A DNA stretch of 64,000 bases from a virus. The notes beneath the pieces were generated by a model. It saw nothing but the letters and a program-made list of their open reading frames with translations. It was not told the DNA's origin and did not search any database. A program made the position numbers and the translations under genes. Shown one piece after another: positions 11,310-59,307 of the stretch. The stretch spans positions 47,145 to 111,144 of the IMG/VR virus record IMGVR_UViG_3300042889_001061. One strand, 5' to 3'. Within the stretch, counting starts at the first letter, position 1. Each line of letters begins with the position of its first letter.

Positions 11310-12194
11310 TCAGTTCGGGGAATCGTTGATTATCTCACTACTGCAATAGTATTTGCCACCGGTGGTCAGCAAATCGCTGATTAACTGATCCAAAGGTACA
11401 CTAATGAAATCTTTTCTGTAAGTATGTCTTGGACCTTGTATTACATAGTCTATATTTTCTGCACCAGACATTTTTGGAAAATATATTAAATCTTTACCCC
11501 AATATTTTCCATAATACATGCCTTTAATAAAGGAGTCCCACCAACTGATATTACGTACTCCTTGTTTTGTGTATAGTCCATGAGCATTAATAAATGCTGT
11601 CATTATATCGTCTTTAACTGTACTTACAACAACTTCGCTGGTTTTATCAAATAATATATATTCAGCGGTTCTGCCTAAAGTGTCTCCTGCACGTTTTCGT
11701 GACATTTCAAAAGTATGATAACCTTCATAAAAATGTGCAATACCTTTAACAAAGGTTATAAAAGGGCCGTCTCCGCCCTGCAAAAAGTTTACATCAGGTA
11801 ATTGGCCGAGAAACTTACTATGAATTATTTGAAATGGCGGAATATTTAAATTTTTACTGATGTCAAGTATTTCTTCTTTACAGGCCATGGGATCAATGTC
11901 AATGATATGTGATTTAAACTGCCAAGCACGTTCCAATTTTTTTAAATTATTAAACTCAATATCATTATAACCTGGCATATAAAGAAATGCAGTTTCAATT
12001 TTAATACCTTGATCCATAAAACTTCTCAACGCGGCTTGACTATCAACACCAGAACTAATACCTAATATAAGTTTGTCCCCCAGGGCAATTATATCTCTAG
12101 CTCGACGATTATACTCTTCTCGAAGATTGCCCACTTCCCACTGACATTGGTCGTATTCGATGTAAAATCCTTGGCTATCTGTGTTGAATTGCAT
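11310..12194 (-). CDS. PP-loop (adenine nucleotide alpha hydrolase-like) protein
   Basis: LGISSGVDS motif. Confidence 0.65.
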   Translation of the reverse strand: MQFNTDSQGFYIEYDQCQWEVGNLREEYNRRARDIIALGDKLILGISSGVDSQAALRSFMDQGIKIETAFLYMPGYNDIEFNNLKKLERAWQFKSHIIDIDPMACKEEILDISKNLNIPPFQIIHSKFLGQLPDVNFLQGGDGPFITFVKGIAHFYEGYHTFEMSRKRAGDTLGRTAEYILFDKTSEVVVSTVKDDIMTAFINAHGLYTKQGVRNISWWDSFIKGMYYGKYWGKDLIYFPKMSGAENIDYVIQGPRHTYRKDFISVPLDQLISDLLTTGGKYYCSSEIINDSPN

Positions 12195-12230
12195 ATTGTA
12201 TATTGCCTTAATAAATACATATTTATTACT

Positions 12231-13385
12231 ATGACAAACAAAAAATTAGGGTATTATACATGTGCCGGTCTGGAATTTGAATCTAAAATTCAAGCATGTC
12301 TACATGCAGTCGCCACAGGTAGGGAAGTTCAATGGCATTTTAACGATGAGATTTTTTCAAAACACAATTGGAGTGTAGAGCCGGAATTAAGTCTTGATGC
12401 ATTGTATAATTTAAGAAGTAAGCAGATTAGAGAAAAATACGACTATGTTGTATTAAGTTACAGCGGTGGCGCAGACAGTCATAATATCTTAATGAGCTTT
12501 ATCCGCCAGGGTCTACACATAGACGAAATTGTTGTAAACAACATGGAAAAAGCCAACCGGCAATTCACGGATCTCAATGTAAACAATACAGATCCAACTA
12601 ATACTCCCGCCGAGTTTAGATTACAGGCTGTACCTAGATTAAAGGAAATCGCAGTACTAATTCCTAGAACAAAAATCACAGTCTGTGATCTCAGTGAACA
12701 CTTGTTTGACTACATGAATTCGGCCAAAGATGCCAGTTGGGTATTAGGCCGCAAGGAAGGCCTTAACGCTGCCAATGCCACTAGATATAATTATTTGGCC
12801 ATGACTGAAATTAGAAAACAGTTTGATAAAAACAAGTCCATGGTCATTGTTGTGGGCGTGGACAAACCACGTTGTTTTATACGCAATGGTGATTTTTATA
12901 TTAGATTTGCAGATCGTGCTGCCAACATTGTTCCAATCCCCGATCACTTGAACGAGTACACAAACAGCACGGTAGAACTATACTATTGGAGTCCGGACAG
13001 TATAGATATTTTAACTAAACAAGCACATGTTGTTCGTCGCTGGTTAAAATTTAAACCTGAAATGCAAAAATTGTTTGACAGTGATGTAATGGCAGATCCC
13101 AAAATATTTAGAATTTACCACGAGCAACTTCTTAAAAATATTGTATATACGACATGGAATGAAAATTGGTTTCAAACAGATAAAGCAGTCAAAGACTGGA
13201 CCAGTGAATTTGATCAATGGTTTGAAGATGGATACAGTGATACAAGAGCATATGGTATTTGGCTGGAAGGCGTTAACTTCGTCAAGGACAAGCTACACAC
13301 ATTTGCCAATCATCGCAATGGCGATCTCGATGGCTTAAAGCTGTTTGGAAAAAACTATAAAATAGGATCTTTTGCAGATCGTTGA
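12231..13385 (+). CDS. PP-loop (adenine nucleotide alpha hydrolase-like) protein
   Basis: LSYSGGADS motif; start moved to MTNKK. Confidence 0.72.
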   Translation: MTNKKLGYYTCAGLEFESKIQACLHAVATGREVQWHFNDEIFSKHNWSVEPELSLDALYNLRSKQIREKYDYVVLSYSGGADSHNILMSFIRQGLHIDEIVVNNMEKANRQFTDLNVNNTDPTNTPAEFRLQAVPRLKEIAVLIPRTKITVCDLSEHLFDYMNSAKDASWVLGRKEGLNAANATRYNYLAMTEIRKQFDKNKSMVIVVGVDKPRCFIRNGDFYIRFADRAANIVPIPDHLNEYTNSTVELYYWSPDSIDILTKQAHVVRRWLKFKPEMQKLFDSDVMADPKIFRIYHEQLLKNIVYTTWNENWFQTDKAVKDWTSEFDQWFEDGYSDTRAYGIWLEGVNFVKDKLHTFANHRNGDLDGLKLFGKNYKIGSFADR

Positions 13386-13387
13386 TT

Positions 13388-14293
13388 TTATTGTTTAATT
13401 TCTAGTTTATTGTTTTGTATAAATTTAGTCAACGCTCGATTTGATTTTAATACAGAATTTATCATCCAGGGCTCTGTTGAGCCTATGGGCAATAAACCTG
13501 CAACAAACGTAGTATCTTTAAATTCCTTGCTGGATAATATCTTCGAAACATCTGCGATAATTTTATTCTTATTGTCAGTTTCCATAGATTTAGAAACTAC
13601 TAATGCTACATAACTTTGATATGGAAATGGTTCTTTAAAGTATTGTTCCCATGTAAGAATTTTATCTCCCATGTCATGACTGGCAAATAACACAGTGATT
13701 CGTGGATCAGTGATTATTACTTTGATGCCTGCATAGTTGCCAAACGTACAATCTACATTTCCAGCCAGTACGTCCAATGCACCTTTGTTGCCGCCTGCAG
13801 GATAAGGTATTGCCAAATGCTTGCCTTTGGCATGAACAAACAAAGATTCGGATGCAATATGTTCGGAGCTGCCATAACCGTTAATGGCAAAACTCAATGA
13901 TTTTGTTGTTGATAAAAAGTCGTCAAACGTTTTGATTCCTAGTTTTGAATTACATATTAATAAATTTGGAAGAACAGCAACGACTGCTAATATTTCCAAG
14001 TCTGTGTCTGGATTGTATTCCAAATCTTTAAACATCATTGGATTGGTTACATATATTTGTGGTACAGTGGCCATTAAAACACTGTTGCCTTGTAAGACAT
14101 GTTTGACTGCGATTCTGCCGGCACCACCAGGACGATTTTGCACAATATAGCCAGCAGACGCTGGTAAGTTTTTTGTGATCAATCTGGCAATTCTATCGCT
14201 GGGTCCACCCGGAGCATGATGAACAGTGAATTCTACAGCATGAGCCGAAATGCATATACACATTCCCAAAAGTATTTTTTTAAGTTTATTCAT
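13388..14293 (-). CDS. Tripartite tricarboxylate transporter substrate-binding protein (Bug/TctC family)
   Basis: Signal peptide, PGGPSDRIAR, NRPGGAGRIA, IPYPAGG..DVLAGNVD. Confidence 0.88.
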   Translation of the reverse strand: MNKLKKILLGMCICISAHAVEFTVHHAPGGPSDRIARLITKNLPASAGYIVQNRPGGAGRIAVKHVLQGNSVLMATVPQIYVTNPMMFKDLEYNPDTDLEILAVVAVLPNLLICNSKLGIKTFDDFLSTTKSLSFAINGYGSSEHIASESLFVHAKGKHLAIPYPAGGNKGALDVLAGNVDCTFGNYAGIKVIITDPRITVLFASHDMGDKILTWEQYFKEPFPYQSYVALVVSKSMETDNKNKIIADVSKILSSKEFKDTTFVAGLLPIGSTEPWMINSVLKSNRALTKFIQNNKLEIKQ

Positions 14294-14534: not shown

Positions 14535-15659
14535 ATGAAAACAGCAGACAATGTAAAAAAGACAATTTTATTTTATCAGCCAGATAGATATACTCGGCAT
14601 GCAGATAGCATCGTGGCAGATGCATATCTCGAAGAACACATTCTTTGTAATTTTTTAATTGCACTTACCTGGGATGATTTTGTCAGTAAATTAAACTTAA
14701 ACCCTGACTTAGTGGGTTTTCACTGTGATTTATTTGACAACGAAGAATTAAGTATTCATCAATTAATAAAAGCAATAGAAATAACTCTCAAGCTAAAAAA
14801 TAACCAAGCAGATATTTTTGTAAAAGTTAATAAAAAAACTTGTCGAGAAACTATTGATATGTTGAGAAACACAAACATCATAGGTCTGCAATTTGATCGG
14901 GGAGACTTTGGTTTAGAATATGCCACAGAATCCTTTCGAAAATTACTAACAGATAGACATCATTGGCCTGAAGAAGTTATTGCTACATCGTTAGAACATC
15001 AAGAAAATAAACGACCTTTGCACGTTTATTTTAGAGATGATATGGAGGTATATTATGACCCAGTAAGATTTGTAGAAGTAACAAAAGATATTAATGCTAG
15101 ATTTCTAATGTGTAAAAGTTTGAATGAGTTAAGTATAGCATTATCCGAGCGTCCTAAGAATCTTGTATTTCATATAGACATGGTTAGACGGCATGGCGGA
15201 ACAATATCAGAGTTTATGATGATGTTAGAAACTATGACGAAATACACTAATACAAAAATTAAACCTAACATCGGTGTTGGTATAGAAGCAGATACACATT
15301 TATCGACAATTAAAGAATTACAAAAACACAGAATACTGGCAATAGTACCAAGTGCAAAAACATTTGGCACAACTAGTACTCGCAGTGCCATAGAAGTAAT
15401 GCTGAATAATGAATCGCATTGGCCCAAAGACATTATCAGTACTCTTCCTGGCAATGAAAACAAAGTAAAAAATAAAAATAATAATGCCCTAACAATTAGA
15501 CAACAAGAAGTATTTGATCTAATTGCTAAACGAGGTCTAAGCAACAAGCAAATCGCCAGAGTGCTAAATATATCTGAGAGCACAGTTAAGATTCATGTCA
15601 GCGCAGTCATGAAGAACCTTTGTGTTAGAAATAGAACACAATTGGCCTTAACGAAATAA
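14535..15659 (+). CDS. LuxR/NarL-family HTH regulator with two degenerate receiver-like domains
   Basis: LTIRQQEVFDLIAKRGLSNKQIARVLNISESTVKIHVSAVMKNL; internal duplication, each unit ending HWP...ENK. Confidence 0.88.
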   Translation: MKTADNVKKTILFYQPDRYTRHADSIVADAYLEEHILCNFLIALTWDDFVSKLNLNPDLVGFHCDLFDNEELSIHQLIKAIEITLKLKNNQADIFVKVNKKTCRETIDMLRNTNIIGLQFDRGDFGLEYATESFRKLLTDRHHWPEEVIATSLEHQENKRPLHVYFRDDMEVYYDPVRFVEVTKDINARFLMCKSLNELSIALSERPKNLVFHIDMVRRHGGTISEFMMMLETMTKYTNTKIKPNIGVGIEADTHLSTIKELQKHRILAIVPSAKTFGTTSTRSAIEVMLNNESHWPKDIISTLPGNENKVKNKNNNALTIRQQEVFDLIAKRGLSNKQIARVLNISESTVKIHVSAVMKNLCVRNRTQLALTK

Positions 15660-15847
15660 TTAACAGCGTATATATCCGTATCCAAAACATCTTCTAATAC
15701 TGAAGCCAATCTAATACTAAGTCATAGCACAACTTAGTATATTTCCTTTTAAGTAATTTAGTAGCAAGCTAGAAATAGATTTTTAGTTTGCACAAACACT
15801 AGGGCGTAATAACAGTCCTAGTATTATTTACTTTAAGGAAAAATAAT

Positions 15848-16402
15848 ATGGCTGACATGTTAACAACAGATCCCTTCTTCGCACTTACAAATCAAGTAGC
15901 TGGCGTAAGAGAGAAAGTTTCCGATAGCATTTTCGAAAACTACAAACTACAAGTTGCTCAAACCAACGACATCAACAACCGTGCTATGCAAGTTGCATTA
16001 CACGATGCTACTGAACTATCTACTATCAAGCAAGAAATTGCTAATGGCACGCTTCAGACTATGTTGGCTGCTAGTCGTACAGACGCACAGATCGGTGCCA
16101 CAAGTGCTGCTCAACAACGTTTGATCATGGAACAAGCAGAAGCTACACGTCGTTTAATCGTCGACTTGAACACACAAAACTTGAACACAGCGTTGATCAA
16201 CACAAACACAGCATTGACTGGTTTGGGTGTATCATACGGTGGTTTAGGTCTTGCATATGGTGGCGCAGTGAGTGCTTACCAAAGTGCTAACTCTACATCA
16301 GCAATCAATGCATTGAACAGCGCAATCGCTAGTCAAGGTATGGTTACTGTAGGTGCTGGCGCAGTAGGCGGTACACAAACTGCTACACCAACAAGCGTTT
16401 AA
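15848..16402 (+). CDS. Ala/Gln/Thr-rich helical protein, probably structural
   Basis: AAGGAA RBS; coiled-coil character; C-terminal GAGAVGGTQTATPTSV. Confidence 0.7.
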   Translation: MADMLTTDPFFALTNQVAGVREKVSDSIFENYKLQVAQTNDINNRAMQVALHDATELSTIKQEIANGTLQTMLAASRTDAQIGATSAAQQRLIMEQAEATRRLIVDLNTQNLNTALINTNTALTGLGVSYGGLGLAYGGAVSAYQSANSTSAINALNSAIASQGMVTVGAGAVGGTQTATPTSV

Positions 16403-16421
16403 TCGCTAAAGGAGGCCTACT

Positions 16422-16607
16422 ATGTATCCATACTTAGGCGGATATGGTAGAGGCTTGGGGGGATTCCCTCGAGGCTATCTAGGAGCTGGCATAGGATATC
16501 CCTATCAAGGCTTCTGGGGCTACCCAGGTTGTGGTTGGGGCTACCCAGGTTATGGCATTGGCTGCTACGGCGGTTATGGCTATGGTTATGGCGGCGGCTT
16601 ACTATAA
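16422..16607 (+). CDS. Gly/Tyr-rich low-complexity protein
   Basis: AGGAGG RBS; GYG/GYPG repeats. Confidence 0.75.
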   Translation: MYPYLGGYGRGLGGFPRGYLGAGIGYPYQGFWGYPGCGWGYPGYGIGCYGGYGYGYGGGLL

Positions 16608-16624
16608 TCTAAAATAGTAAAGTA

Positions 16625-16657
16625 AGTAGGTTGGCTCATAAGGCTGACCTACTTTTT
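16625..16657 (+). terminator. Intra-operon terminator/stabilising hairpin
   Basis: AGTAGGTTGGC-loop-GCTGACCTACT-TTTT. Confidence 0.7.
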
Positions 16658-16673
16658 AATAAAGGAGATTGTT

Positions 16674-16883
16674 ATGTACGGTTATTTGTACCCATTTTAT
16701 AGAAGTCCATATATTGGAGGTTACGGAGGTTACGGCTATGGCTATCCATACAACTATGGTGGCTATTACAACAATAATGTTAGTAATGTTATAGGTAGCG
16801 CAGTTGCTAACCAATCAATGAATACTATTGGCGCCGGAGCCATAGGTGGCATTCAAGTTGCTACACCTACTGTAATTTGGTAA
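16674..16883 (+). CDS. Gly/Tyr-rich protein sharing the C-terminal motif of 15848..16402
   Basis: AAGGAG RBS; ends GAGAIGGIQVATPTVIW. Confidence 0.75.
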   Translation: MYGYLYPFYRSPYIGGYGGYGYGYPYNYGGYYNNNVSNVIGSAVANQSMNTIGAGAIGGIQVATPTVIW

Positions 16884-16895
16884 AAGGAATTTAAG

Positions 16896-17636
16896 ATGTA
16901 TATCAGAAGCACTACACCAAAGCCAACTCCATTACCAGAAAAAGAAAAGTTGTGGATTACAGTTGACCCAGATCAACCCAATGGTGATTGTGAACCTCTG
17001 CCGCCCGTTGAATTAAAAAATAAAATAGGCGCAACCGATCCATTACCAAGTGTAGTAATAAATGAAGCTACTATGACATTTAGAATGAATAGTAGAACAT
17101 TATGGACAAAATACGCATTAGGTCTAGTTAATTTTGCTGTCAGTGATGTTGCCGACTTACCCACAACAGACAGTGTAGAACAACGTATGTATAAATCATC
17201 TACACTGATAGGTGATTTCTTTGTTCCTTATTATGGTATTCGTGCAGGCAGTGATATTGCAAAATTGCTAACTGAGATATTTAAAAATGGTGTTGATGTA
17301 GTTGCCGCAGTTAAAAAACAACAAGACACGGTTCCATATCAAATTAAATGGGCAGAACAAACAAAAGAACTTGCTGAATTGTTTAATAAATTAAACCCAA
17401 GTCAATACCCAACTTCATTATTACAAGAAATGTTAGATGCTTTAACTAAGTTATGGTTAGATAACATCATTGCTAGATATACTAACAATATTATTCTTAA
17501 TGCTGAAAGTATAGATGGCATTAACAAATTAGTTATCACTGGTATTGCTAATCACGTTAACAAAGGTTATCAGAGTTTAGCAGATGTGTTAAGTCGTGGA
17601 GTTATTGCTCAATATCCATTATCATTTTTGGAATAA
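16896..17636 (+). CDS. Helical-bundle protein, paralog of 21284..21976
   Basis: RTLW...FFVPYYG...LFNKLNP...LSRGVIAQYP; resembles, from memory, a Firmicutes family often labelled 'acetylglutamate kinase', but no kinase motifs are visible. Confidence 0.6.
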   Translation: MYIRSTTPKPTPLPEKEKLWITVDPDQPNGDCEPLPPVELKNKIGATDPLPSVVINEATMTFRMNSRTLWTKYALGLVNFAVSDVADLPTTDSVEQRMYKSSTLIGDFFVPYYGIRAGSDIAKLLTEIFKNGVDVVAAVKKQQDTVPYQIKWAEQTKELAELFNKLNPSQYPTSLLQEMLDALTKLWLDNIIARYTNNIILNAESIDGINKLVITGIANHVNKGYQSLADVLSRGVIAQYPLSFLE

Positions 17637-17639
17637 GAA

Positions 17640-17879
17640 ATGGCGATAATAAACGTTCAGTCTAACAAGAATATTGAGTTTTTAGACTTAGAAGTTCACG
17701 CTGTCATGTGTGAACAACGACGTCTTGCACTAGAAGAAAAAATTAATTCAGTTGCACTTCGTATCAACGATTATGAACAGCAACAACTAGCAAACAAAAG
17801 ATTAATGCTAGGTGCAATAGTTTCTATTGCTACGGGCATTATCACAACAATAGTGTCTTTAGTAGGGAGGAATTTTTAA
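17640..17879 (+). CDS. Coiled-coil plus C-terminal TM protein (XhlA/holin-like architecture)
   Basis: CEQRRLALEEKINSV then a hydrophobic helix. Confidence 0.55.
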   Translation: MAIINVQSNKNIEFLDLEVHAVMCEQRRLALEEKINSVALRINDYEQQQLANKRLMLGAIVSIATGIITTIVSLVGRNF

Positions 17880-17880
17880 A

Positions 17881-18498
17881 ATGAATCAACTTGAAATAAA
17901 CAGACAACGAGCACAATTATTAACAACAGCAAGAAATATGCTCAATGAAGAATATCAACGACAACGCAGTGAGCAATATACTAAGTGGCAAAGCGAATCA
18001 AATCACCTATGGATATCAAAAGGTATAATGTTGCCATATCCTAGTTCTTTTGGTTATCCCACTGAAGAAGAAGTTGTTGCAAAAGCATTAGAATTATATA
18101 ACACACAAAATAATAAACCAGTATCAAACACTGGTGTCGAATTACCTAAAACAGATGAATCAATGACTTCATCTGTGACAGCAAAACTAATGGAAGTTAG
18201 TCACAATGTTCGACCGGTTGTAATGCCAGAAGTACCTGATGTAACACCTTGGGAACAATACTTGGTGCCTGAACCAATTAAACAACCAGTACCGATTGTA
18301 GAAGAACCTGTAATAGAAGATGTTGTTGCCAAGGAACCCGAACTAATCGTAGAAGAGGAAGTAGCAGAACCTGAACTAACAGAAGAACAAATAGAAGAAG
18401 TAAAAAGTAATTCTAGATTAAGAGGGTTACTGGCACAATTTATTACCATGGCTAAAGGGCTTGATGCCAAAGCCCAAAAAGATGAAGGAACAAAATAA
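17881..18498 (+). CDS. Paralog of 23658..23918 with an acidic Pro/Glu-rich extension
   Basis: [12 protein letters not shown]...[14 protein letters not shown] vs RLELLKMSKEML...FPTEEEIIKKAKVL. Confidence 0.65.
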
Positions 18499-18998
18499 TG
18501 TTTAATAATTTATTATTCAATAGAAGACCATTAAGAAGAGTTATTCGTCGTCCAGTATATAGACGTCCTATAATTAATCAGTATGGCGGCAATGGCAGTG
18601 ATATATTTTATAACAGCGGTGGAGGAGTTGGACCACCAGGGCCACCAGGGCCACCAGGGCCACCAGGACCACCAGGGCCACCAGGGCCACCAGGGCCTCC
18701 GGGCACACCAGGATTAGTGCCAGTAACCGTAGTAAACACAAGTCCTTATATTGCTTTACCCACTGATTATGATCTTGCTGTTACTGCTAACGCAGTTATA
18801 CCTGCCAGCATAGTGTTACCAGCAAGTCCTGTTGGAACTGTTTTTATTGTAAAAGACGCCGCAGGAGTGGCAAATATAAATTCAATCACAGTATCTGCCA
18901 TAGCATCGACTATTGACGGAGCAGCCAGTGCTGTTATCGATGCTCCATATGGTAGTTTACAATTTATATTCAACGGCATAGAATGGAACATAGTATAA
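18498..18998 (+). CDS. Collagen-like protein, (GPP)8 plus beta-rich C-terminal domain
   Basis: Arg-rich N-terminus, GPP repeats, C-domain LPA..G.VFIVKD..G.A....ITV....IDGA. Confidence 0.85.
18630..18701 (+). repeat. 9-bp tandem repeat encoding Gly-Pro-Pro x8
   Basis: GG(A/G)CCACCA units, last unit GGGCCTCCG. Confidence 0.9.
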
Positions 18999-19549
18999 TG
19001 GCATACAAAGCACCACTTGCTTCAACAACCGATTTTGGAATTATGAAAGTCGGCACCGGTTTATCAGTTACTGATGGAACCGTTAACGCATCAACCGGCT
19101 TACTCAATTATGGATTTTTTGAAAACGGAACACAAACTAATCCAGTGGCCAGTGCAATTAATTTAGCATCATTTAGTATAACTGGTCCAGCAAATGGAAT
19201 TAGTATAGTTGGTGGTACTCAACTTACAGTAGTCAACGCTGGAACATACAACACGGTGTTTACAATGAATGTAAACAAAACATCCGGTGGCGCCAGCACT
19301 ATTAGCATATGGCTACGTCTAAATGGAGCAGACATTGCAGGCTCAGCACAAGATTTAATTTTAACAGGAGCATTGGATACAATCTTCGTTACAGGCAATT
19401 ATACATTGGATATACCTGCAGGAGGCAATATAGAAATATGCTGGAGTAGTGCTGACACTACCATGCAGTTATTGGCATTGCCAGCAAGAGTTGGTCCAGT
19501 GCGTCCAAGCGGCGCCAGTGTAAAAGTTACACTAACAAGAATTAGTTAA
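18998..19549 (+). CDS. BclA C-terminal/C1q-like beta-sandwich protein
   Basis: GISIVGGTQLTVVNAGTYNTVF...IWLRLNGADIAGS...ASVKVTLTRIS. Confidence 0.65.
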   Translation: MAYKAPLASTTDFGIMKVGTGLSVTDGTVNASTGLLNYGFFENGTQTNPVASAINLASFSITGPANGISIVGGTQLTVVNAGTYNTVFTMNVNKTSGGASTISIWLRLNGADIAGSAQDLILTGALDTIFVTGNYTLDIPAGGNIEICWSSADTTMQLLALPARVGPVRPSGASVKVTLTRIS

Positions 19550-19558
19550 GGAAATAAT

Positions 19559-19918
19559 ATGTCTGCAAATTTAAACACAAAAATAGTTACAACAACACCT
19601 TACACCGTGTTATCATCAGATGAAGTAATTTTTATGAATGTCCTTGGACCATCGTCTGTTATATTGCCAGCCAATGGCCTGGCCACAGGTGAAGATTGTT
19701 GCGGCGATGATGATGACGACTACAACGGCAAAAAAAAGCCAGTGCTAAAGCGTTCATATTACATCAAAGATATTTCAGGTAACTCGGCAGCGAACCCAGT
19801 TACTATTACATCAGCAGGATCCAAGTCCATTGACAGCAATCCATTTGCAATCATCAATGGCGGATATGGTCATATACAGGTAGTGTATGACGGTACAAAC
19901 TGGAAGATTATAGGATAA
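19559..19918 (+). CDS. Stand-alone paralog of the collagen protein C-terminal domain
   Basis: TTPYTV...LPA...IKDISG...NPVTIT...ID...YG.IQVVYDGTNW. Confidence 0.7.
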   Translation: MSANLNTKIVTTTPYTVLSSDEVIFMNVLGPSSVILPANGLATGEDCCGDDDDDYNGKKKPVLKRSYYIKDISGNSAANPVTITSAGSKSIDSNPFAIINGGYGHIQVVYDGTNWKIIG

Positions 19919-19958
19919 TCATTCCAATTAAAATTAGTTAATATAAAGGAAAACTAAA

Positions 19959-20363
19959 ATGTCATATACAAATAACCCAACGTCGATACTTGCCGGAGCA
20001 GGTATTACAGTATCACCAACAACAGGTACAGGTGCAAATACAATTACTCTTAGTGCCAGTGGTATTAATCCTGTGGCAGTTAGAGTTGCAGTTGCAACTC
20101 CAGTCGTGGCCAGTGCAACCACAGATGAAGTAATCAGCGTACAAGTTCCTGGTCCAGTTGCTGTGGCAGTTACATTGCCAGCAGGTGTTGCCGGTAAAGT
20201 ATTCACAATCAAAGACGGACTAGGATTGGCTGCACCAGCAACACCTATTACTATTACACCAACAGTCCCTGACACAGTAGATGGCGCCGCCACTGCTACA
20301 ATTGATGCACCATTTGGTTCATTGACATTGGTCTTTGATGGCGCACAGTGGATACTAGTATAA
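19959..20363 (+). CDS. Third paralog of the same beta-rich domain
   Basis: TLPAGVAGKVFTIKDGLG...ITIT..VDGA...FGSLTLVFDGAQW. Confidence 0.7.
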   Translation: MSYTNNPTSILAGAGITVSPTTGTGANTITLSASGINPVAVRVAVATPVVASATTDEVISVQVPGPVAVAVTLPAGVAGKVFTIKDGLGLAAPATPITITPTVPDTVDGAATATIDAPFGSLTLVFDGAQWILV

Positions 20364-20364
20364 T

Positions 20365-20643
20365 ATGTACAAAAGAATCACTCATACGATTGTCGAGGAA
20401 CATTTCGACCATCCTGAGGCAGTAGCAATGGCAGCCGAATCTAAATCTAAAGGTAAAGCCCCATTGCGCTATTATGCTGACGGCCAACAGATAGCATCTG
20501 ATTTACCGCAGTCTTATCAATTAGCAGTAGGAGAAAATCGCTGTGGCAATTGTCTAGCATTTGACCCAACTAGAAACGTTTGTAAGCAATGGATGTTACC
20601 TGTGCGAGCAGACTATGTTTGTGCCGCATGGACAGTAATTTAA
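20365..20643 (+). CDS. HiPIP-like four-Cys protein with shared N-terminal tag
   Basis: YQ...CGNCLAF...C..W...V...YVCAAW. Confidence 0.6.
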   Translation: MYKRITHTIVEEHFDHPEAVAMAAESKSKGKAPLRYYADGQQIASDLPQSYQLAVGENRCGNCLAFDPTRNVCKQWMLPVRADYVCAAWTVI

Positions 20644-20655
20644 AAGGATAATAAA

Positions 20656-21273
20656 ATGGGAATTATAAGAAGACCTGAGCCACTTAAAGTCAAACTAGAA
20701 GATGTAGATACTCCTGTGGAAAACGAAGTAGTATGTATAGTCGAAGAAAGCGATGATGGTAACATTATTGAAATAATATGTGTACCAGAAGAATTTCTCG
20801 AAAAAGTCAAACCAGTAGAAGAAGTTCGAGCAGAATTTAAACCCAAGGCTGTGGTAACTTCTACTGCCACTGGGGAACAGTTCGGAACTTGGATTCCCGT
20901 TTTGCGTAGTACAGGCACAATTGATGTTAACATTAGAAATGCTTTTTATACAAAAGTTGGACAGTTAGTAACCTGTACATTTGATATAATAGTTACTAAC
21001 ATGTCTGAACGAAATAATTCTTCTATAACGCTGAATGGACTGCCAATTAACAGTATAAATTCTCAGGGAATAGCAGGATCTGCTCATTTATCTTATTTTA
21101 AAACGCCAACCAATGAATTAACTCATATAAGTGGCACAATAAACGGCAACGATACTAGAATAGATTTGTGGTGTGAACGACATGGTCGCAAAGGACTATT
21201 ACCGTTAACTCAACAGGATATTCAAATCAACACAGTTCTAGCAGGAACTGTAACTTATATTACAAATTCTTAA
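20656..21273 (+). CDS. Fibre-tip-like beta domain protein with acidic N-terminus
   Basis: GTWIP...YTKVGQLVTCTF...LNGLP pattern seen in tail-fibre C-termini. Confidence 0.5.
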   Translation: MGIIRRPEPLKVKLEDVDTPVENEVVCIVEESDDGNIIEIICVPEEFLEKVKPVEEVRAEFKPKAVVTSTATGEQFGTWIPVLRSTGTIDVNIRNAFYTKVGQLVTCTFDIIVTNMSERNNSSITLNGLPINSINSQGIAGSAHLSYFKTPTNELTHISGTINGNDTRIDLWCERHGRKGLLPLTQQDIQINTVLAGTVTYITNS

Positions 21274-21283
21274 GGAGAATATT

Positions 21284-21976
21284 ATGTACAAAAAAATTAC
21301 GCACAACATAGTCGAAGAGCACTTTGACCATCCCGTAGCCAGTCAGATTAAGAAATCTATGACTAGATCTAAAATTCCTAATAATGAAGTTTTTTCAGAA
21401 ATCAAATTTAGATCAGATATAAACTCATATTTCGAAAACTATAAATCACGAATTAATTCTATGATCAACAGTGCAACTGGCACTGAAGAAGATTTAATTA
21501 AACCATTTGAAGAAATATTCAACAACTCTTGGGTTGATGGTCTTGGCAACATGACCAAGCCCATATACTTCAGCGAATTAGGTGAAAGAATTAATTCTGC
21601 TTTTAGAAGTTTTCCTGTGACTTTATTAATAATGATACAACTCTTAAAAACTGGAAGAGATATAACTGCGTCAACTCGTAGATTTGTAGGTGCCAGGGAT
21701 GACTTGTCAATAGCATTAAATAATTTTAATCCGGCTTGGCAAAATACAGCAATAAGCTCGTTGTTTACGACCATTACAACTGAAATGATAAATCAAGTTA
21801 AAGCTCGATTGAAAAAAGATTCCAATGCTGAATTACAATCTGCACAACAAATTGCTCAAGCATTCGAAACATTTGAAAATGCATTTGTAAATGGAATAAT
21901 CAGTCAACATCCAGAAAGATTTTCTATATCAACTCCTGTGATTGCTCCAACTTCTTATAATAGAGATATAATGTAG
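21284..21976 (+). CDS. Helical-bundle protein with shared N-terminal tag, paralog of 16896..17636
   Basis: MYKKITHNIVEEHFDHP; LNNFNPAW; FVNGIISQHPERF. Confidence 0.65.
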   Translation: MYKKITHNIVEEHFDHPVASQIKKSMTRSKIPNNEVFSEIKFRSDINSYFENYKSRINSMINSATGTEEDLIKPFEEIFNNSWVDGLGNMTKPIYFSELGERINSAFRSFPVTLLIMIQLLKTGRDITASTRRFVGARDDLSIALNNFNPAWQNTAISSLFTTITTEMINQVKARLKKDSNAELQSAQQIAQAFETFENAFVNGIISQHPERFSISTPVIAPTSYNRDIM

Positions 21977-21984
21977 ATTATAAA

Positions 21985-22731
21985 ATGTATGCCAAAGATT
22001 TTAGAGTAAGAGCTGACCCCGCAGACCGGCGAGATCGTTATTATAATTTTGCCAGAATAGAACAGCCCAGGAACTATGTCGATCTTCGACCCTGGGCTAG
22101 TCCTGTGGAAGATCAATTACATCTAGGAAGTTGTGTTGGACAAGCAGTTGTAGGCGCCTATGAATTATTATTAAACAAGTCGGATAGAACCAAGTTTACG
22201 GACCTAAGTAGATTATTTGTGTATTACAATGCACGTTTGTTGGATAATTCAATAGACGAAGACGTGGGTGCTTATGTTCGAGATGGAATTAAAGCTGTAA
22301 ACAAATACGGAGTTTGCAGTGAACAGTCGTGGCCATACTTAATAAAACGATTTACAGATGCTCCTAGTGTTCAAAGCTACGAAGATGCTCGTCGTAGATT
22401 GATAAAAAAATATTATAGAATAGAAAGTATAAAAGATATAGTCGATGCACTAAACGCAGACTGCCCTGTGGTCACTAGTTTTAATGTCTATAACAGCTTT
22501 GATGATTTAGAATATTCAGGCAATCACGTATTGCCAATGCCACAAGCCAGCGAAAACTTAATTGGTGGTCATGCTGTTACTTTTGTAGGCTATGATTTAT
22601 CAAAGAAATTGTTTTTAGCAAGAAATAGTTTCGGTACAGATTGGGGTATGGACGGATACTTTTGGGTACCCTTTGACTATGCAGAAAAAGACTTTATGGA
22701 TAGCTGGGTATTTGACATCGAACTAATTTAG
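21985..22731 (+). CDS. Papain-like C1 cysteine peptidase
   Basis: VDLR...DQLHLGSC, LSRLFVYYNAR, GGHAV, RNSFGTDWGMDGYF. Confidence 0.93.
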   Translation: MYAKDFRVRADPADRRDRYYNFARIEQPRNYVDLRPWASPVEDQLHLGSCVGQAVVGAYELLLNKSDRTKFTDLSRLFVYYNARLLDNSIDEDVGAYVRDGIKAVNKYGVCSEQSWPYLIKRFTDAPSVQSYEDARRRLIKKYYRIESIKDIVDALNADCPVVTSFNVYNSFDDLEYSGNHVLPMPQASENLIGGHAVTFVGYDLSKKLFLARNSFGTDWGMDGYFWVPFDYAEKDFMDSWVFDIELI

Positions 22732-23657: not shown

Positions 23658-23918
23658 ATGAGCACAAATGGCTATGAAATTCGTCTTGAACTACTCAAGA
23701 TGTCAAAAGAAATGCTAGAGCAAGACTGGCATGCAAATCGCGAGACGCTTCAGCGTCAATGGGAACAAGAGGTTAATCTGGTCCAGATCCGAGCACAAGC
23801 GTCCGATCAACCAGTTGAATCGATTCCTACACAACCAACCTTCCGACCTTTTCCTACAGAAGAAGAGATCATCAAGAAGGCCAAGGTCTTAAACGAGTTT
23901 GTTGCCCAACGAGCATAA
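23658..23918 (+). CDS. Small helical phage protein
   Basis: YEIRLELLKMSKEML...PTEEEIIKKA..LNEFV; followed by terminator 23937-23973. Confidence 0.75.
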   Translation: MSTNGYEIRLELLKMSKEMLEQDWHANRETLQRQWEQEVNLVQIRAQASDQPVESIPTQPTFRPFPTEEEIIKKAKVLNEFVAQRA

Positions 23919-24040: not shown

Positions 24041-24301
24041 ATGAACGTTACTACAAAATCAGGCAAGTTGCTAGAAGCATTGCAATCTGGTGAGAAGTTG
24101 ACAGCCAAGCAGATCTCTGCTCGCTTTGGTATTAAAAACCCAACAGCAACCGTAAGCGATCTACGCTTCAGCGGTTATGCAATTTATGCTAATCAGCATA
24201 AAGATACTAATGGTCGTCAGACCACTAAGTATCGCTTGGGCAATCCAAGCCGCCGTATTGTAGCCGCAGGCTACCGTGCTATGGCAGGTGGCCTAGTCTA
24301 A
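24041..24301 (+). CDS. Winged helix-turn-helix DNA-binding protein
   Basis: LTAKQISARFGIKNPTATVSDLRFSGYAIY; terminator 24322-24350. Confidence 0.75.
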   Translation: MNVTTKSGKLLEALQSGEKLTAKQISARFGIKNPTATVSDLRFSGYAIYANQHKDTNGRQTTKYRLGNPSRRIVAAGYRAMAGGLV

Positions 24302-24362: not shown

Positions 24363-24887
24363 ATGGATTTAAAGCAAATAATTAGAACAGTGAATGATTT
24401 TCCTAAACCAGGAGTTAAGTTTTTAGATGTAACTAGTATACTAGAAAATCCAATGGCATTTAGAAAAACAATTAATTGGCTGATTAAAGTAGCGGCAGCT
24501 CATGAAATTGAAAGTATCGTAGCAATTGATGCTCGGGGATTTATTTGGGCGGGCGCTGTTGCCAATGAACTACGTTGTCCATTACATCTTGCACGGAAGC
24601 CAAGCAAGCTACCTGGCAATATAGTTACTAACACCTACGACACAGAATACAGTACTGCCAGCTTGAGCATGTTAAAAGACATAAAAATTAAAGGTCCAGT
24701 AATGATCATAGATGACATACTGGCCACTGGCGGAACATTAAATGCCGTTGGAGAAATGCTACATCGAGAATTTCAAATCGAGCCCGAGAATCAAATCCAT
24801 ACTGTAATTGCCAACTTAGATTTTCTACCCGGTAAACAGTTTTTAATCGATAAAGGTTATATAGTCAAGAATTTGATTAATTACTGA
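24363..24887 (+). CDS. apt: Adenine phosphoribosyltransferase
   Basis: DFPKPGVKFLD, DARGF, ARKPSKLPG, IIDDILATGGT. Confidence 0.93.
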   Translation: MDLKQIIRTVNDFPKPGVKFLDVTSILENPMAFRKTINWLIKVAAAHEIESIVAIDARGFIWAGAVANELRCPLHLARKPSKLPGNIVTNTYDTEYSTASLSMLKDIKIKGPVMIIDDILATGGTLNAVGEMLHREFQIEPENQIHTVIANLDFLPGKQFLIDKGYIVKNLINY

Positions 24888-25735
24888 CCAACTCTAATTT
24901 TATGTCTGTCAACGGCAGAACGGCACCACAGCATGGGACACGCAAAAGACAAGTCAGGTGCTTGCCAATCCTCGTCAAATACGTTTCTTATATCCCTGCC
25001 ACCGCATTCACTGCCAGATGCAAAGCCTTTATGACTGATGCGTAAAAAATCAATGCCTGCATAACATTGTTTTCCTGTATAGCTAGGACTGTTGTCTTTA
25101 GGAGGCTCGTTCAACGGAATGTACACAGGAGCCTGTATGACCACAGGTACTTGATAATCTTCAGGCAAGCCCTGTATTAAATTAATATCTTTAATACTGT
25201 AACCTGACCAATAATTATTTCCATCTTCATTTTTTAAAATTTGTTCCTCTACTCCAATTTCTAGGCTAGATAACTCAACAACTTTTTCCCTGCATTCTTT
25301 GATCTTACCAGGCATTAATGGTACCATAATTCTTATTTTTTTATCATTTTCTTTACACAAGTCGACGATATATTCTAACACGCTTGAGTTTTGCCAATGA
25401 TGATGTGTTACCTTTAAGTAGTCTACATAGTTGATAATTTCCATTACTCCAAACCAACTGTCTCCACCAGATGTGTCCAATCTAACATAAGATTCTTTTT
25501 CTTTTATTTTTCTAAGTAATAAATTTAAGTTGGGGAAATGCAAGGGCTCGCCGCCACTTAATGTCCATTTAATTTTATCACCGTGCTGATATCTAGTTTG
25601 TTGTAGCTTTTCCACCACGCCTAAATATTGATCTAAAGTTCGAGTTAATTCGCCACCACTCCATTTACTGGGGCAGTATTCACAGTCATGTTCGCAATAA
25701 CTATTGAGTTTCCAGTTGATTTCTAAGGTTTTCAT
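24881..25735 (-). CDS. Radical SAM protein
   Basis: CEHDCEYC, SGGEP, C-terminal Cys cluster. Confidence 0.88.
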   Translation of the reverse strand: MKTLEINWKLNSYCEHDCEYCPSKWSGGELTRTLDQYLGVVEKLQQTRYQHGDKIKWTLSGGEPLHFPNLNLLLRKIKEKESYVRLDTSGGDSWFGVMEIINYVDYLKVTHHHWQNSSVLEYIVDLCKENDKKIRIMVPLMPGKIKECREKVVELSSLEIGVEEQILKNEDGNNYWSGYSIKDINLIQGLPEDYQVPVVIQAPVYIPLNEPPKDNSPSYTGKQCYAGIDFLRISHKGFASGSECGGRDIRNVFDEDWQAPDLSFACPMLWCRSAVDRHKIRVGQ

Positions 25736-32665: not shown

Positions 32666-34057
32666 TTAGACAGGGCTGTGTCTTGCTAAATTAGCAAGAG
32701 GTTGCTCTAACATTATATCAGGGCAATGTCTTGCTAAGATGTCATGTACTTCTGGCAAGACCTTTCGCCAGTTGGTGCCCCTGATTTTATCTAGTTTGTC
32801 CATTACTGTTACAAATTCTTGATATTTTTTTGAATTTTCTCGGTCTATATATTTTTCTAATAATTTAATAATTGCTTTATACCACTTGGTGCGATTTTCT
32901 GTATGATGCATTAAATTTTTATAATGTTCGATGATTTCTTCCTTGGCCGATCTTGGTAAAGATCGCAGATCTAACCAAGCTGGACCTTCTAAAAATCTAA
33001 ATTCTGCAGGGACGTCTAGTTCTTCGGCAACTTCAACTATTCGTTCTATAGAGTATATAGACGCGAGTCCTATACAACATGAAAGATAACGTATACTCAT
33101 ACCATTTTCTTTAATAGTTTTTATGTTCTTAACAATATTATTATAATTTCCCGGAAAACGAATAAGATTGTATCTTTCCTCCACGTCGTCGAGACTAACA
33201 CAAAAGTCAATATTCTTAAAGAATTTAAATTTTTCAATAATCTTATTATTGATTACAGTTAAATTTGTATCGTATCGCAGTGTAATATTTTTTGCAAAAT
33301 CCCTTGCTATTAAACGATTTAATATTTCAGTCATAGCAGGAGAAATCAACGGCTCGCCACCGGAAAAATAAATGTATCTCAAGTCGGGTGCAATCTTATC
33401 AAAACGTTCCCACCAAATATCACTTTCCCACCATTTCGAATAATCTAAAATCTCTCGACCTTTGGTATCTGTGGTCATCCTATAATCTTTGTCACCCCAC
33501 TCAGTACCCGCCGGCGTAACTTGGACATCGCCCCAAAGTTTACTCCAATCTTCATACCAAAGACTGCTGTATTCAGGACTGCACATTATACATTTTTGAT
33601 TGCATAAATTGCTCAATCGAAGGCCTAAATTTACAACCTTGGCAGTTGAAGTACCATCGGGTAATGTATATTGATCGGCCTGATCCCAGCGGACATATTC
33701 TGGAATCCGTTTAGTCATATGCCTATTGACTCGTTGTCTTTTACTCTTGCCCCATTTTTTAACATCTTCGTCGCCTGGCACATCAAGGCCTTTAGTGCTA
33801 TGCTCAGCATCATAACAATTACGACATCTCGTTACTTTAATATTTTCTTTAAGTTGTAATCGATGATTTTTATGGGTTACACTATTAATAGCCTCTTCTA
33901 TGGAATGGGTCATGACATTCATTACGTTGCCATTCTCATCATGCGCCATTCCATAATCTTTATTATAATTTGCCAGGCAACATATTTTATAGTCACCGAG
34001 TGTGTTGATTTCTATTTGGCTCCACAACTCGCCACAAAAACTTTCTAAATTAAACAT
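32666..34057 (-). CDS. Radical SAM protein with N-terminal Cys-rich (twitch/SPASM-like) domain
   Basis: NLCNQKCIMC, FSGGEP, N-terminal C...CC...CRNC. Confidence 0.9.
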   Translation of the reverse strand: MFNLESFCGELWSQIEINTLGDYKICCLANYNKDYGMAHDENGNVMNVMTHSIEEAINSVTHKNHRLQLKENIKVTRCRNCYDAEHSTKGLDVPGDEDVKKWGKSKRQRVNRHMTKRIPEYVRWDQADQYTLPDGTSTAKVVNLGLRLSNLCNQKCIMCSPEYSSLWYEDWSKLWGDVQVTPAGTEWGDKDYRMTTDTKGREILDYSKWWESDIWWERFDKIAPDLRYIYFSGGEPLISPAMTEILNRLIARDFAKNITLRYDTNLTVINNKIIEKFKFFKNIDFCVSLDDVEERYNLIRFPGNYNNIVKNIKTIKENGMSIRYLSCCIGLASIYSIERIVEVAEELDVPAEFRFLEGPAWLDLRSLPRSAKEEIIEHYKNLMHHTENRTKWYKAIIKLLEKYIDRENSKKYQEFVTVMDKLDKIRGTNWRKVLPEVHDILARHCPDIMLEQPLANLARHSPV

Positions 34058-57891: not shown

Positions 57892-59307
57892 ATGACTATA
57901 AAAGGAAATAATTTTAGCAACGAGAGTTTTTGTCCAGAAGTATATAATCAGATTCAGATTGATATGCAAGGCGATTTAAGAGTTTGCTGTTTGTCTTCTG
58001 ACGGCGGCCTAGCTAGAGAGGCCAGCGGAACTCCAATGAATGTAAAAACGCATTCAATCATCACCGCAATGAACAGCGAAATACACAAACAACACAGGTT
58101 AGATTTAAGTAATAACATTAAACCTCAACGATGCAGTAATTGCTATAATTGGGAAAATCACAGCAATGATACGAGTCGTCGTAAAAAGTTTATCAGACTA
58201 TCTCAAAATAAACTTGACTATGTCAAAGCCAGTGAAGCATTTGATGTAACAAACGATGACGGCTCCGTCGATGTTGACACTACTAAGTTGATTAATTTAG
58301 ATATAAGATTTGGTAATCTGTGTAACCTCAAGTGCATTATGTGTGATCCAGGAAATAGTAGTCTGTGGTATGAAGACTGGGATCTGCTATCTAGAAAATT
58401 TTCAAAAACTGAAGCCAGTGGACGATCGGTTAAATTTCAATTGGGTGGAATAGATCCGATCACTGGAAATACTCAGTACTGGAAAGATAAAACTAAATTT
58501 TATTCTCTTGAAAAGAATCAGTTAGGCAAATTGAAATTGCAAAATGAAGAAAACTGGTGGGAAACTGAATCGTGGAAAAATCAGTTTAAAAAAATTGCGC
58601 CCCAGTTACAGCATATTTACTTTACAGGCGGAGAGCCCTTGCTGGTACCAGCAATGGAAGAACACTTAACTTATCTAATTGAAAACGATTTTGCTAAAAA
58701 TATTATGCTGTGTTACGACACAAACCTGACAGTTGTCAATTCAAACATAATTAACAAATGGAAATTTTTTAAAGAAGTTGACTTGAGGGTCAGCGTAGAC
58801 GACACCGGTGACCGCTATAATGTGGTTCGAAATCCTGGAAATTTTGACAAGTTATATGATAACATAACTCGAATTCAAGAAGCCAACATAAAAATTAAAT
58901 ACATAAGCATAGTTTGTCACTTGGCCAATGTTTATGGTGTAATTCGCGTTGCAAAGTTAGCAAAACAGATAGGTGCTTCAATGTCATTGAGATTTGTAAC
59001 TAGACCGGGATGGATGAATGTGTCGAATTTACCTAATTCTGCTAAAGAAGAAGTAATTTCAGTGCTTACTAAATTTTTAGAATCCGAAGAATGTGAATCT
59101 ATCCGAGGATATGAAAATTTCGTTCAACAACAAATAAAGCATTTTCGTGACAACCAAACAACATCTTCACCAAACACAGGATCAAATTTGGAAACTTTTG
59201 TGCAAGTAATGAATCTAATGGATCAGTCTAGAAATCTAAACTGGAAACATACATTGTCTGATATTGCAGAACTTTTAAAGAAACATGTGCCGGGATTGGA
59301 CATATAA
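57892..59307 (+). CDS. Radical SAM protein with twitch-like domain, paralog of 32666..34057
   Basis: NLCNLKCIMC, SSLWYEDW, FTGGEP, YDTNLTV. Confidence 0.9.
   Translation: MTIKGNNFSNESFCPEVYNQIQIDMQGDLRVCCLSSDGGLAREASGTPMNVKTHSIITAMNSEIHKQHRLDLSNNIKPQRCSNCYNWENHSNDTSRRKKFIRLSQNKLDYVKASEAFDVTNDDGSVDVDTTKLINLDIRFGNLCNLKCIMCDPGNSSLWYEDWDLLSRKFSKTEASGRSVKFQLGGIDPITGNTQYWKDKTKFYSLEKNQLGKLKLQNEENWWETESWKNQFKKIAPQLQHIYFTGGEPLLVPAMEEHLTYLIENDFAKNIMLCYDTNLTVVNSNIINKWKFFKEVDLRVSVDDTGDRYNVVRNPGNFDKLYDNITRIQEANIKIKYISIVCHLANVYGVIRVAKLAKQIGASMSLRFVTRPGWMNVSNLPNSAKEEVISVLTKFLESEECESIRGYENFVQQQIKHFRDNQTTSSPNTGSNLETFVQVMNLMDQSRNLNWKHTLSDIAELLKKHVPGLDI

Follow-up and report, generated by a model that had tools for sequence, protein, structure and literature searches.

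A conserved, separately regulated gene cluster of T4-like freshwater jumbo phages with fibre-type genes and shared peptide tags

We describe a cluster of 15 genes (g01 to g15) at positions 14535–22731 of a 64,000-nt stretch of viral DNA, which spans positions 47,145 to 111,144 of the IMG/VR virus record IMGVR_UViG_3300042889_001061. This stretch, which we call the window, is the last 64 kb of the 111-kb record (CheckV completeness 32%). The cluster is a conserved, self-regulated module that is non-enzymatic and phage-only, and its parts bear common address peptides. New here are a 17-residue N-terminal peptide (N-tag) on three unrelated protein families, a C-terminal peptide (C-tag) shared between two proteins, a minimal form of seven genes, and the mosaic exchange of the fibre genes. 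We tentatively suggest, at rather less than an even chance, that this is a separately regulated, morphogenetic cassette for making a composite fibre or "hair", which would probably be fixed to the virion.

Sister records that bear the cluster contain a T4-type gene for the major capsid protein Gp23 (E 2e-99 to 4e-80), and contigs that bear g02 reach sizes of 327–333 kb; hence the carrier is a T4-like jumbo phage from fresh water, uncultured and about 330 kb in size. Directly upstream of gp23, the gp22 position holds a helical protein in the sister records. The window also carries 12 tRNA genes, a ribonucleotide reductase and several radical S-adenosylmethionine (radical-SAM) genes.

Layout and conservation of the cluster

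All 15 open reading frames (ORFs) lie on the plus strand, and from g02 to g15 they are tightly packed or overlapping, with intergenic spacings of –1 to 66 nt; 188 nt precede g02 and 222 nt follow g15. Pfam recognises just three things, namely a GerE helix-turn-helix (HTH) in g01, a sub-threshold collagen match in g08 and a Peptidase_C1 domain in g15, and scans of the cluster with PADLOC and NCBIfam returned nothing besides the HTH. All-against-all BLASTP confirmed the paralogies among the cluster proteins. An initial annotation, made from the letters of the window, had listed 15 co-oriented genes and among them a LuxR-type regulator, an Ala/Gln helical protein, two Gly/Tyr-rich peptides, two paralogous helical bundles, a coiled-coil transmembrane protein, an acidic-tailed protein, a (GPP)8 collagen protein whose C-domain recurs to make three copies, and a papain protease. 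All 15 genes are real, and each of these descriptions holds on the evidence given for it below, as does the statement that the proteins have no obvious Sec-type signal peptide, none being visible at the N-termini by inspection, with no predictor run.

Searches of IMG/VR with g09, g05 and an alignment of g14 gave 49 loci, and were followed by tblastn of all cluster proteins. The gene order g01-g02(x1-2)-g03-g04-g05-g06-g07-g08-g09-g10-g11(xn)-g13-g14-g15 is kept in more than 20 distinct contigs of T4-like jumbo phages. Chance is excluded as the source of this arrangement, because homologs of each gene stand in this order in many further contigs. The initial annotation had named a lack of synteny as the finding that would speak against its proposal, and with collinearity in more than 20 contigs that objection falls away. 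The median identity to the window across the loci is 77% for g02, 69% for g11 and 27–52% for the other families.

A minimal version of the cluster (L056:9101-13565) has seven genes, which encode the regulator, a g02-like protein of 201 aa, two fibre proteins with the C-domain, one of them a collagen protein, tagged forms of g12 and g14, and the protease. It is without g03–g07, and thus has no Gly/Tyr-rich peptide and no membrane anchor g06. Another contig (L002/L026), which is without g02–g07, encodes g09–g11 that are 94–95% identical to those of the window, but its g01, g14 and g15 are only 44, 27 and 46% identical. Because the near-identical g09–g11 stand between flanks of 27–46% identity, we conclude that the fibre segment moves horizontally, and such a mosaic swap is the pattern typical for host-recognition (receptor-binding) fibre genes.

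Among 50,697 deposited phage genomes we found no match to the whole cluster, nor to g02, g07, g08 or g11. The family has no bacterial counterpart either, as 185,579 species genomes gave a single g02 match, on a 10-kb contig of a metagenome-assembled genome (MAG). That contig (L055, CAZXGO010000088.1), which binning assigned to a Chitinophagales MAG, is probably a piece of phage DNA in the wrong bin, and is weak at best as a clue to the host. A paper on freshwater jumbo phages (PMC13573597) makes no mention of collagen, LuxR, papain, T4-like, Straboviridae or tail fiber.

Two shared peptides and the proteins that carry them

The best-conserved protein of the cluster is g02 (15848–16402), which consists of a helical rod rich in Ala, Thr, Gln and Asn (A 16%, T 12%), a Gly-rich stretch and the C-tag (approximately nt 16316–16399). 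It has 757 homologs at E ≤ 0.001, counted as representatives of 90%-identity clusters and all of them viral or metagenomic, and 53 representative clusters were matched among 1.84 billion proteins. In their alignment the blocks KVSDSIFENYKLQVAQTNDINNRAMQVAL and LNTQNLNTALINTN are invariant. The rod of some members has inserts of exactly 11 or 22 residues (DAxxxQQRLTM units), which suggests a hendecad periodicity; one member has an 18-residue insert at another site. The gene is frequently duplicated. Distant relatives of 280–450 aa combine long, repeat-rich helical N-terminal parts with the same C-terminal module, and one of these long relatives has a sub-threshold Apolipoprotein match; such a long form fills the g02 position of the minimal cluster. 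No search gave support for a resemblance of g02 to flagellin or PspA.

T4 fibritin (wac), whose architecture we take from general knowledge, resembles g02 in joining a helical rod of variable length (184 to about 450 aa among g02-like proteins) to a conserved C-terminal module, which in fibritin is the foldon and in the g02-like proteins a stretch of about 28 residues that is beta-prone. The two have no sequence similarity, however, and the module of g02 also stands on a Gly/Tyr-rich peptide. Pfam Fibritin_C had no match in five incomplete records.

The Gly/Tyr-rich peptide in question is the 69-aa g04 (16674–16883), which ends in the C-tag of g02 (approximately nt 16797–16880; BLASTP of the g02 C-terminus against g04, E 2e-12). 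The C-tag comprises about 28 residues, roughly SAIxxQGxVNTGxxxGxxQTxTPTxI, and in the loci it is carried by the g02 and g04 families only. The second such peptide, g03 (16422–16607), has 61 residues and the core motif RGYLxAGIGYPY, and a composition scan found a g03-type Gly/Tyr-rich ORF of 49–73 aa at the same position in 27 loci. The two peptides contain 41% Gly and 21% Tyr, and 20% Gly and 19% Tyr. Peptides of this composition are typically matrix or cross-linkable material.

The N-tag, MYKK(I/V)THxIVEEHFDHP, is shared almost without variation by three unrelated protein families. It starts the g05-type helical bundles, the four-cysteine protein g12 and the bundle g14. In 71 homologs of g14, which are otherwise 23–87% identical, residues M1, Y2, I5, T6, H7, I9, E11, E12, H13 and F14 are invariant, while K3, K4, V10, D15, H16 and P17 are conserved in at least 90%. 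The synonymous positions vary freely over 45 distinct instances (TAC/TAT 24:21, CAT/CAC 25:20), and therefore selection acts on the peptide. The motif is confined to the cluster in 826 kb of five records, and it is disordered in the AlphaFold2 (AF2) model, with a predicted local distance difference test (pLDDT) score below 50.

The carriers are neutral or acidic, with isoelectric points (pI) of 5.2, 6.8 and 6.9. In g14 (21284–21976), the N-tag (nt 21284–21334) is followed by a bundle of six to seven helices (AF2 model, pLDDT 86.6), and the gene always directly precedes that of the protease. The model has no specific structural relative; it matched generic bundles only (best Foldseek E 0.08; VIA Z 10 to a designed protein), and the g14 family gave weak ApoLp-III and TENA matches. 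g05 (16896–17636) is a paralogous helical bundle (hhalign probability 100%, E 2e-61). Most g05 homologs begin with the N-tag, but the g05 of the window has lost it and has a Pro-rich extension in its place. Outside the tag, the bundles of g05 and g14 have no conserved polar residue; this argues against their being enzymes, and the cluster proteins look structural.

In g12 (20365–20643), the N-tag (nt 20365–20415) precedes a domain with four invariant cysteines in the pattern C-x2-C-x9-11-C-x12-C, and the N-termini of g12 and g14 match at E 3e-9 by BLASTP. The domain had been called HiPIP-like, and of this the four invariant cysteines with HiPIP-like spacing stand, but the family matches are weak: Pfam HIPIP matches 3 of the 13 members (best E 0.017), a HiPIP profile from the PDB comes out at E 0.49, and there is no Tat signal. 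At one further locus (L038:3333-3521), a 62-aa His-rich repeat peptide (HHTTGTHHHSEMG...) bears the N-tag. Together, the His-rich peptide, the four-cysteine protein and the three His residues of the tag are hints of metal binding. Taken as a pair, the two shared peptide tags appear to point to co-assembly of the proteins that carry them.

Regulator, fibre-type genes and protease

The regulator g01 (14535–15659), which is always found directly upstream of the cluster, has two non-canonical receiver-like N-domains and a C-terminal HTH of the GerE/LuxR type (Pfam E 8e-16). Its best NCBIfam matches are response regulators of the NarL/ErdR/CsgD type, all of them sub-cut-off and spanning the linker and HTH alone. 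Pfam gave no Response_reg or Autoind_bind match, and among 19 homologs the N-domain has no invariant Asp and no invariant acidic residue; judged by its residues, it is not a canonical receiver.

By alignment of upstream regions, the conserved 5′ leader of g02 (15748–15847, plus strand) contains two hairpins, the first of them with compensatory changes in 6 of 7 predicted pairs, and then a strong ribosome-binding site. The hairpins are followed by TTTACTTTAAGGAAAAATAAAATG, and when g02 is duplicated the leader recurs ahead of each copy. It may be a transcript-stabilising or regulatory element, and the region upstream of gp23 in sister phages has no comparable leader. With both strands counted, the 64-kb window has two copies of the T4 late promoter TATAAATA, and since neither of them lies upstream of the cluster they give no clue to the timing of the operon. 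In a freshwater RNA library, a 973-nt contig of a relative that covers g02–g03 had a depth of 34, as against about 3–8 elsewhere in the cluster; these are contigs of one run from a library that may contain DNA, and the depth is compatible with strong g02 transcription without being evidence for it.

The genes g08–g11 encode the fibre-type parts. g08 (18498–18998) has an Arg-rich N-terminus, a collagen repeat, and the first copy of the C-domain. The repeat, (GPP)8, can be read directly in the sequence, and Pfam Collagen scores 22 bits, which is under its cut-off; g08 also matches PHROG tail-fibre and baseplate families (E 6e-7 to 1e-4). The second copy of the C-domain is in g10 (19559–19918), which has an acidic CCGDDDDD insert, and the third is in g11 (19959–20363), the second most conserved protein, where it follows a fibre-type N-terminus. 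The copies match one another by BLASTP at E 5e-18, 7e-12 and 2e-8, and the C-domain has weak PHROG tail-fibre and baseplate matches (E about 1e-5; g11 against phrog_20556, E 2.5e-5). In three sister records, PF07880 (T4_gp9_10_N) matches weakly (E 3e-5 to 2e-4) within the cluster region, and an ORF of 367 aa, about 14 kb away from the capsid gene, holds a fourth match to this family.

For g09 (18998–19549) we correct the original call, since the most likely start is at 18998, which overlaps the stop codon of g08 and gives a protein of 183 aa, as in most homologs. Its short fibre-type N-terminus is followed by a knob, which the AF2 model predicts to be a TNF/C1q-like jelly roll (pLDDT 83.5). 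With Foldseek the model matched, at E 1e-7 to 2e-6, PDB structures of 4-1BBL, the C-terminal domain of BclA, F-BclA, BxpB/ExsFA, the portal-tail structure of cyanophage A4 and the short tail fibre of A-1(L). The exosporium proteins among these (BclA 3twi, 1wck and 2z5w; F-BclA 9h38; BxpB/ExsFA 8d02 and 7r1m) gave E 1e-7 to 1e-6, and a sequence profile gave E 0.019. In BFVD the same fold forms the knob at the C-terminus of many long phage proteins, which contain collagen, Stf repeats or the S74 chaperone, and also of collagen-like proteins of giant viruses. Relatives of g09 in small phages lie between portal and capsid genes, or beside genes for tail assembly and genes resembling that of the tape measure. 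The fold is thus ordinary phage fibre hardware.

In the Bacillus exosporium, the nap consists of BclA, a collagen with a C1q-like C-terminal domain, carried on a basal layer of ExsFA/BxpB and ExsY. The initial annotation had likened g09 to the C-terminal domain of BclA, had pointed out that collagen and this domain make up the exosporium nap, and had seen in the cluster a resemblance to a spore-coat/exosporium or virion-matrix assembly system. The likeness in fold holds, and the nearby collagen repeat and the small Tyr-rich proteins add to the resemblance, but TNF ligands and phage fibre knobs match equally well; the specific link to the exosporium is lost, because the same knob ends many phage fibres and cyanophage tail fibres match no worse. 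In the cluster, moreover, the collagen (g08, with its gp9/10-type C-domain) and the knob (g09) are on separate proteins rather than on one polypeptide as in BclA, inspection shows no N-terminal targeting motif of the BclA kind, and the cluster is carried by a T4-like phage and not by a sporulating Firmicute. Searches of the cluster with Pfam and NCBIfam found no sequence homologs of ExsY, CotY or BxpB.

The closer comparison is with the collagen-like fibres of phages that end in a C1q/TNF knob, such as the short tail fibre of A-1(L) (8ke9) and the portal-tail structure of A4 (9k09). These share with the cluster the collagen repeat, a fibre-type N-terminal motif and the jelly-roll knob, as well as relatives in the structural modules of small phages and mosaic exchange. 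In contrast to them, the parts described here are distributed over several short proteins a long way from the tail genes, and they stand among a regulator, Gly/Tyr-rich peptides, tagged bundles and a C1 protease. The accessory protein g13 (20656–21273), with an acidic N-terminus and a beta-rich C-terminus, is variable and found in just 8 loci. It had been described as fibre-tip-like, for which we have leads only, in the form of a PHROG match and of Atlas clusters that contain Mtd_N and PTL_trimer.

The last gene, g15 (21985–22731), encodes a papain-family C1 cysteine protease without a signal peptide. Pfam Peptidase_C1 matches with 57.9 bits (cut-off 20.7), and the set of Q44, C50, H196 and N214 is intact and invariant in 22 sequences. 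An inhibitory prodomain is absent, with about 35 residues before the mature-type start and the Pfam match running from residue 38. The C1 protease of the Burkholderia jumbo phage FLC9 is 38% identical, and its gene stands alone, without a comparable cluster in its surroundings. A complex prediction for g15 and g14, made on the idea that g14 may be an inhibitor or prodomain acting in trans, or that the tag may be cut by the protease, scored 0.01 (mark 0.32), which speaks neither for nor against binding.

Between the bundle g05 and the fibre-type genes lie g06 (17640–17879) and g07 (17881–18498). g06 is a 79-aa coiled-coil protein with a C-terminal hydrophobic, transmembrane segment, i.e., of the tail-anchored type, and it keeps its position in 16 loci. 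g07 has a conserved N-domain followed by an acidic tail rich in Glu, Pro and Val (E 15%, pI 4.7 for the protein). A gene downstream of the cluster, g17 (86 aa, 23658–23918), is paralogous to the N-domain of g07 (E 1.6e-5), and is followed by g18 (24041–24301; phrog_4973, E 6e-14); the pair follows the cluster at two further loci as well (L021 and L022), and at a third (L050) it precedes the cluster on the other strand.

Possible structures and neighbouring genes

We propose that the GerE-type g01 would switch on the operon and that the products would assemble into one composite fibrous structure. The g02 rod and the Gly/Tyr-rich peptides would form a conserved stalk or matrix, in which g02 and g04 may be joined through their common C-terminal module, and the collagen, gp9/10-like and C1q-knob proteins g08–g11 (and g13) would be exchangeable distal fibres. 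The proteins g05, g14 and g12 would be recruited through the N-tag, and the C1 protease may process one or more components. Its most likely place would be on the virion, where it would form hair, whiskers or accessory fibres for adsorption; a shell like a spore coat is less likely. Gene content, synteny, folds, tags and mosaicism are observed; we infer co-assembly, the roles of the parts, attachment to the virion and the substrates of the protease, and we favour a virion-attached fibre because the distal parts are of the virion-fibre type and are exchanged like host-recognition genes.

The initial annotation had proposed a regulated, self-assembling shell or matrix, such as an occlusion-body-like protection of virions or a coat of the infected cell. 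What stands of this is one conserved, separately regulated module with structural-looking products and tags that point to co-assembly; the exosporium part does not, as its components turn out to be ordinary phage fibre parts. None of the analyses showed a shell, matrix or occlusion body. The same annotation had held that the proposal would fail if the proteins were ordinary fibre components, which they are for g08–g11 but not for the rest of the cluster.

Several observations weigh against a fibre on the virion. An own HTH regulator and a tail-anchored protein such as g06 are both unusual for virion parts of a T4-like phage. The cluster does not lie in a tail-morphogenesis module, since it is 77–109 kb from gp23 in the sister records and, in the single record with a weak match to a sheath, 59 kb from that match. 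Relatives in the 50,697 deposited phage genomes are confined to the g09 knob and the protease, and direct binding of the cluster proteins to each other is putative.

An alternative, which is the proposal of the initial annotation in general form, is a structure apart from the virion. It would be a coat, a matrix or a body like an organelle, in or on the infected cell, anchored by g06, with cargo recruited by the N-tag and with the protease maturing or dissolving it. We regard this as possible but doubtful. The cluster has its own regulator and a location far from head and tail genes, the membrane-anchored coiled-coil protein g06 is conserved, the Gly/Tyr-rich peptides are of a kind typical for matrix or cross-linkable material, and g09 shares its fold with BclA and ExsFA as well. 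In targeting to microcompartments and encapsulins, one short tag is likewise found on several unrelated proteins and confined to one locus. The cargo peptides of these systems resemble the N-tag in being one short, probably helical tag on unrelated proteins at the locus of a self-assembling structure, and in the phage the tagged cargo would include the HiPIP-like four-cysteine protein and, at one locus, the His-rich peptide. The present locus differs in that it is carried by a phage and encodes no shell protein of the bacterial microcompartment (BMC) or encapsulin type; indeed no shell-type protein family was detected with Pfam or NCBIfam. Furthermore, the fibre parts are of the virion type and swapped like receptor-binding genes, the minimal cluster does without g03–g07 including the membrane anchor, and with no visible secretion signals the structure would have to be cytoplasmic. 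A tag-addressed cytoplasmic body, made of the g02 rod, cross-linkable Gly/Tyr-rich peptides and fibre-derived parts, with Fe-S-like cargo and remodelling by the protease, would be the phage equivalent of targeting to microcompartments or encapsulins, and we consider it rather improbable.

A different use of the N-tag is suggested by T4 itself, where unrelated internal proteins share only a capsid-targeting sequence (CTS) of 10 residues at the N-terminus, MKTYQEFIAE, which is cut after Glu, with residues 8 and 10 deciding the processing (PMC3012670, PMC9026906, PMC8442874). If the N-tag were such a sequence, it would direct g05, g12 and g14 into the prohead core, a gp21-like protease would cut after Ile-x-Glu, and the proteins would be injected with the DNA, so that the cluster would be a plastic island of accessory genes for the virion, coding for internal proteins as well as fibres, and would build no joint structure. 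The T4-type Gp23 capsid genes and the helical protein in the gp22 position are in keeping with this. As in the CTS of IPI-III and Alt, a short N-terminal peptide with I-x-E is the sole element shared by unrelated proteins; the N-tag, carried by three families, fits the (I/L)-x-E propeptide pattern with I9-V10-E11 (I9 and E11 invariant, V10 near-invariant), and its disorder in the AF2 model would fit as well. However, the N-tag has 17 conserved residues and not 10, so that conservation runs six residues beyond the putative cut (E12–P17), the carriers (pI 5.2–6.9) are not basic as the T4 internal proteins are, and the tagged genes are confined to a cluster that encodes its own, unrelated C1 protease. 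Since this explanation also leaves g02, the Gly/Tyr-rich peptides and the C-tag unaccounted for, we hold it to be unlikely, though a serious rival.

A cassette for lysis or envelope remodelling, with g06 as a holin-like protein, g15 as an endolysin-like peptidase and the fibres acting on the envelope, is very unlikely. It would draw on the weak matches of g06 to XhlA (E 0.003) and to a holin PHROG (E 0.005), and on a distant homolog of g15 annotated as 'endolysin' in the Alicyclobacillus phage MMB025, but the g06 matches are far below cut-offs, g15 is a true C1-family peptidase and not CHAP or NlpC/P60, g06 is missing from the minimal cluster, and most genes would be left unexplained. We give scarcely any credence to the idea that the Gly/Tyr-rich peptides are precursors resembling bacteriocins or ribosomally synthesised and post-translationally modified peptides, matured by the cysteine protease: they are small and Gly-rich, g15 has a weak Peptidase_C39_2 match (E 7e-4) and several radical-SAM genes lie elsewhere in the window, but no modifying enzyme, transporter or immunity gene was found among the 15 genes, the peptides have no leader/core organisation, the end of g04 is shared with the structural g02, the radical-SAM genes are unlinked to the cluster in other contigs, and the minimal cluster has no Gly/Tyr-rich peptide.

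The cassette is among the best-conserved accessory modules of abundant, uncultured freshwater T4-like jumbo phages, and no function has been described for any of its core families. A 17-residue address on unrelated proteins, together with the C-tag, is crisp and experimentally testable. If the structure is indeed on the virion, it would define a composite fibre or hair of a new type, which has its own regulator and whose tips can be exchanged, and conditional decoration of the virion would be possible; if it is off the virion, the phage would be building an intracellular structure of a new kind. In both cases, the tag and the seven-gene minimal cluster could be tools for targeted protein assembly.

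Among the neighbouring genes of the window, the one at 13388–14293 on the minus strand encodes a periplasmic solute-binding protein of the TctC/Bug type (Pfam TctC, E 4e-13), whose N-terminus resembles a signal peptide; this is a possible auxiliary metabolic gene and also a hint to the host. Next to it, a divergent pair at 11310–12194 (minus strand) and 12147–13385 (plus strand) has PP-loop-like SGG(A/V)DS motifs and no significant family match. On the other side of the cluster, an adenine phosphoribosyltransferase (APRT)-like gene lies at 24363–24887, and four radical-SAM-like genes (24881–25735, 32666–34057, 57892–59307 and 61823–63073; PHROG E 1e-5 to 1e-8) adjoin tRNA genes.

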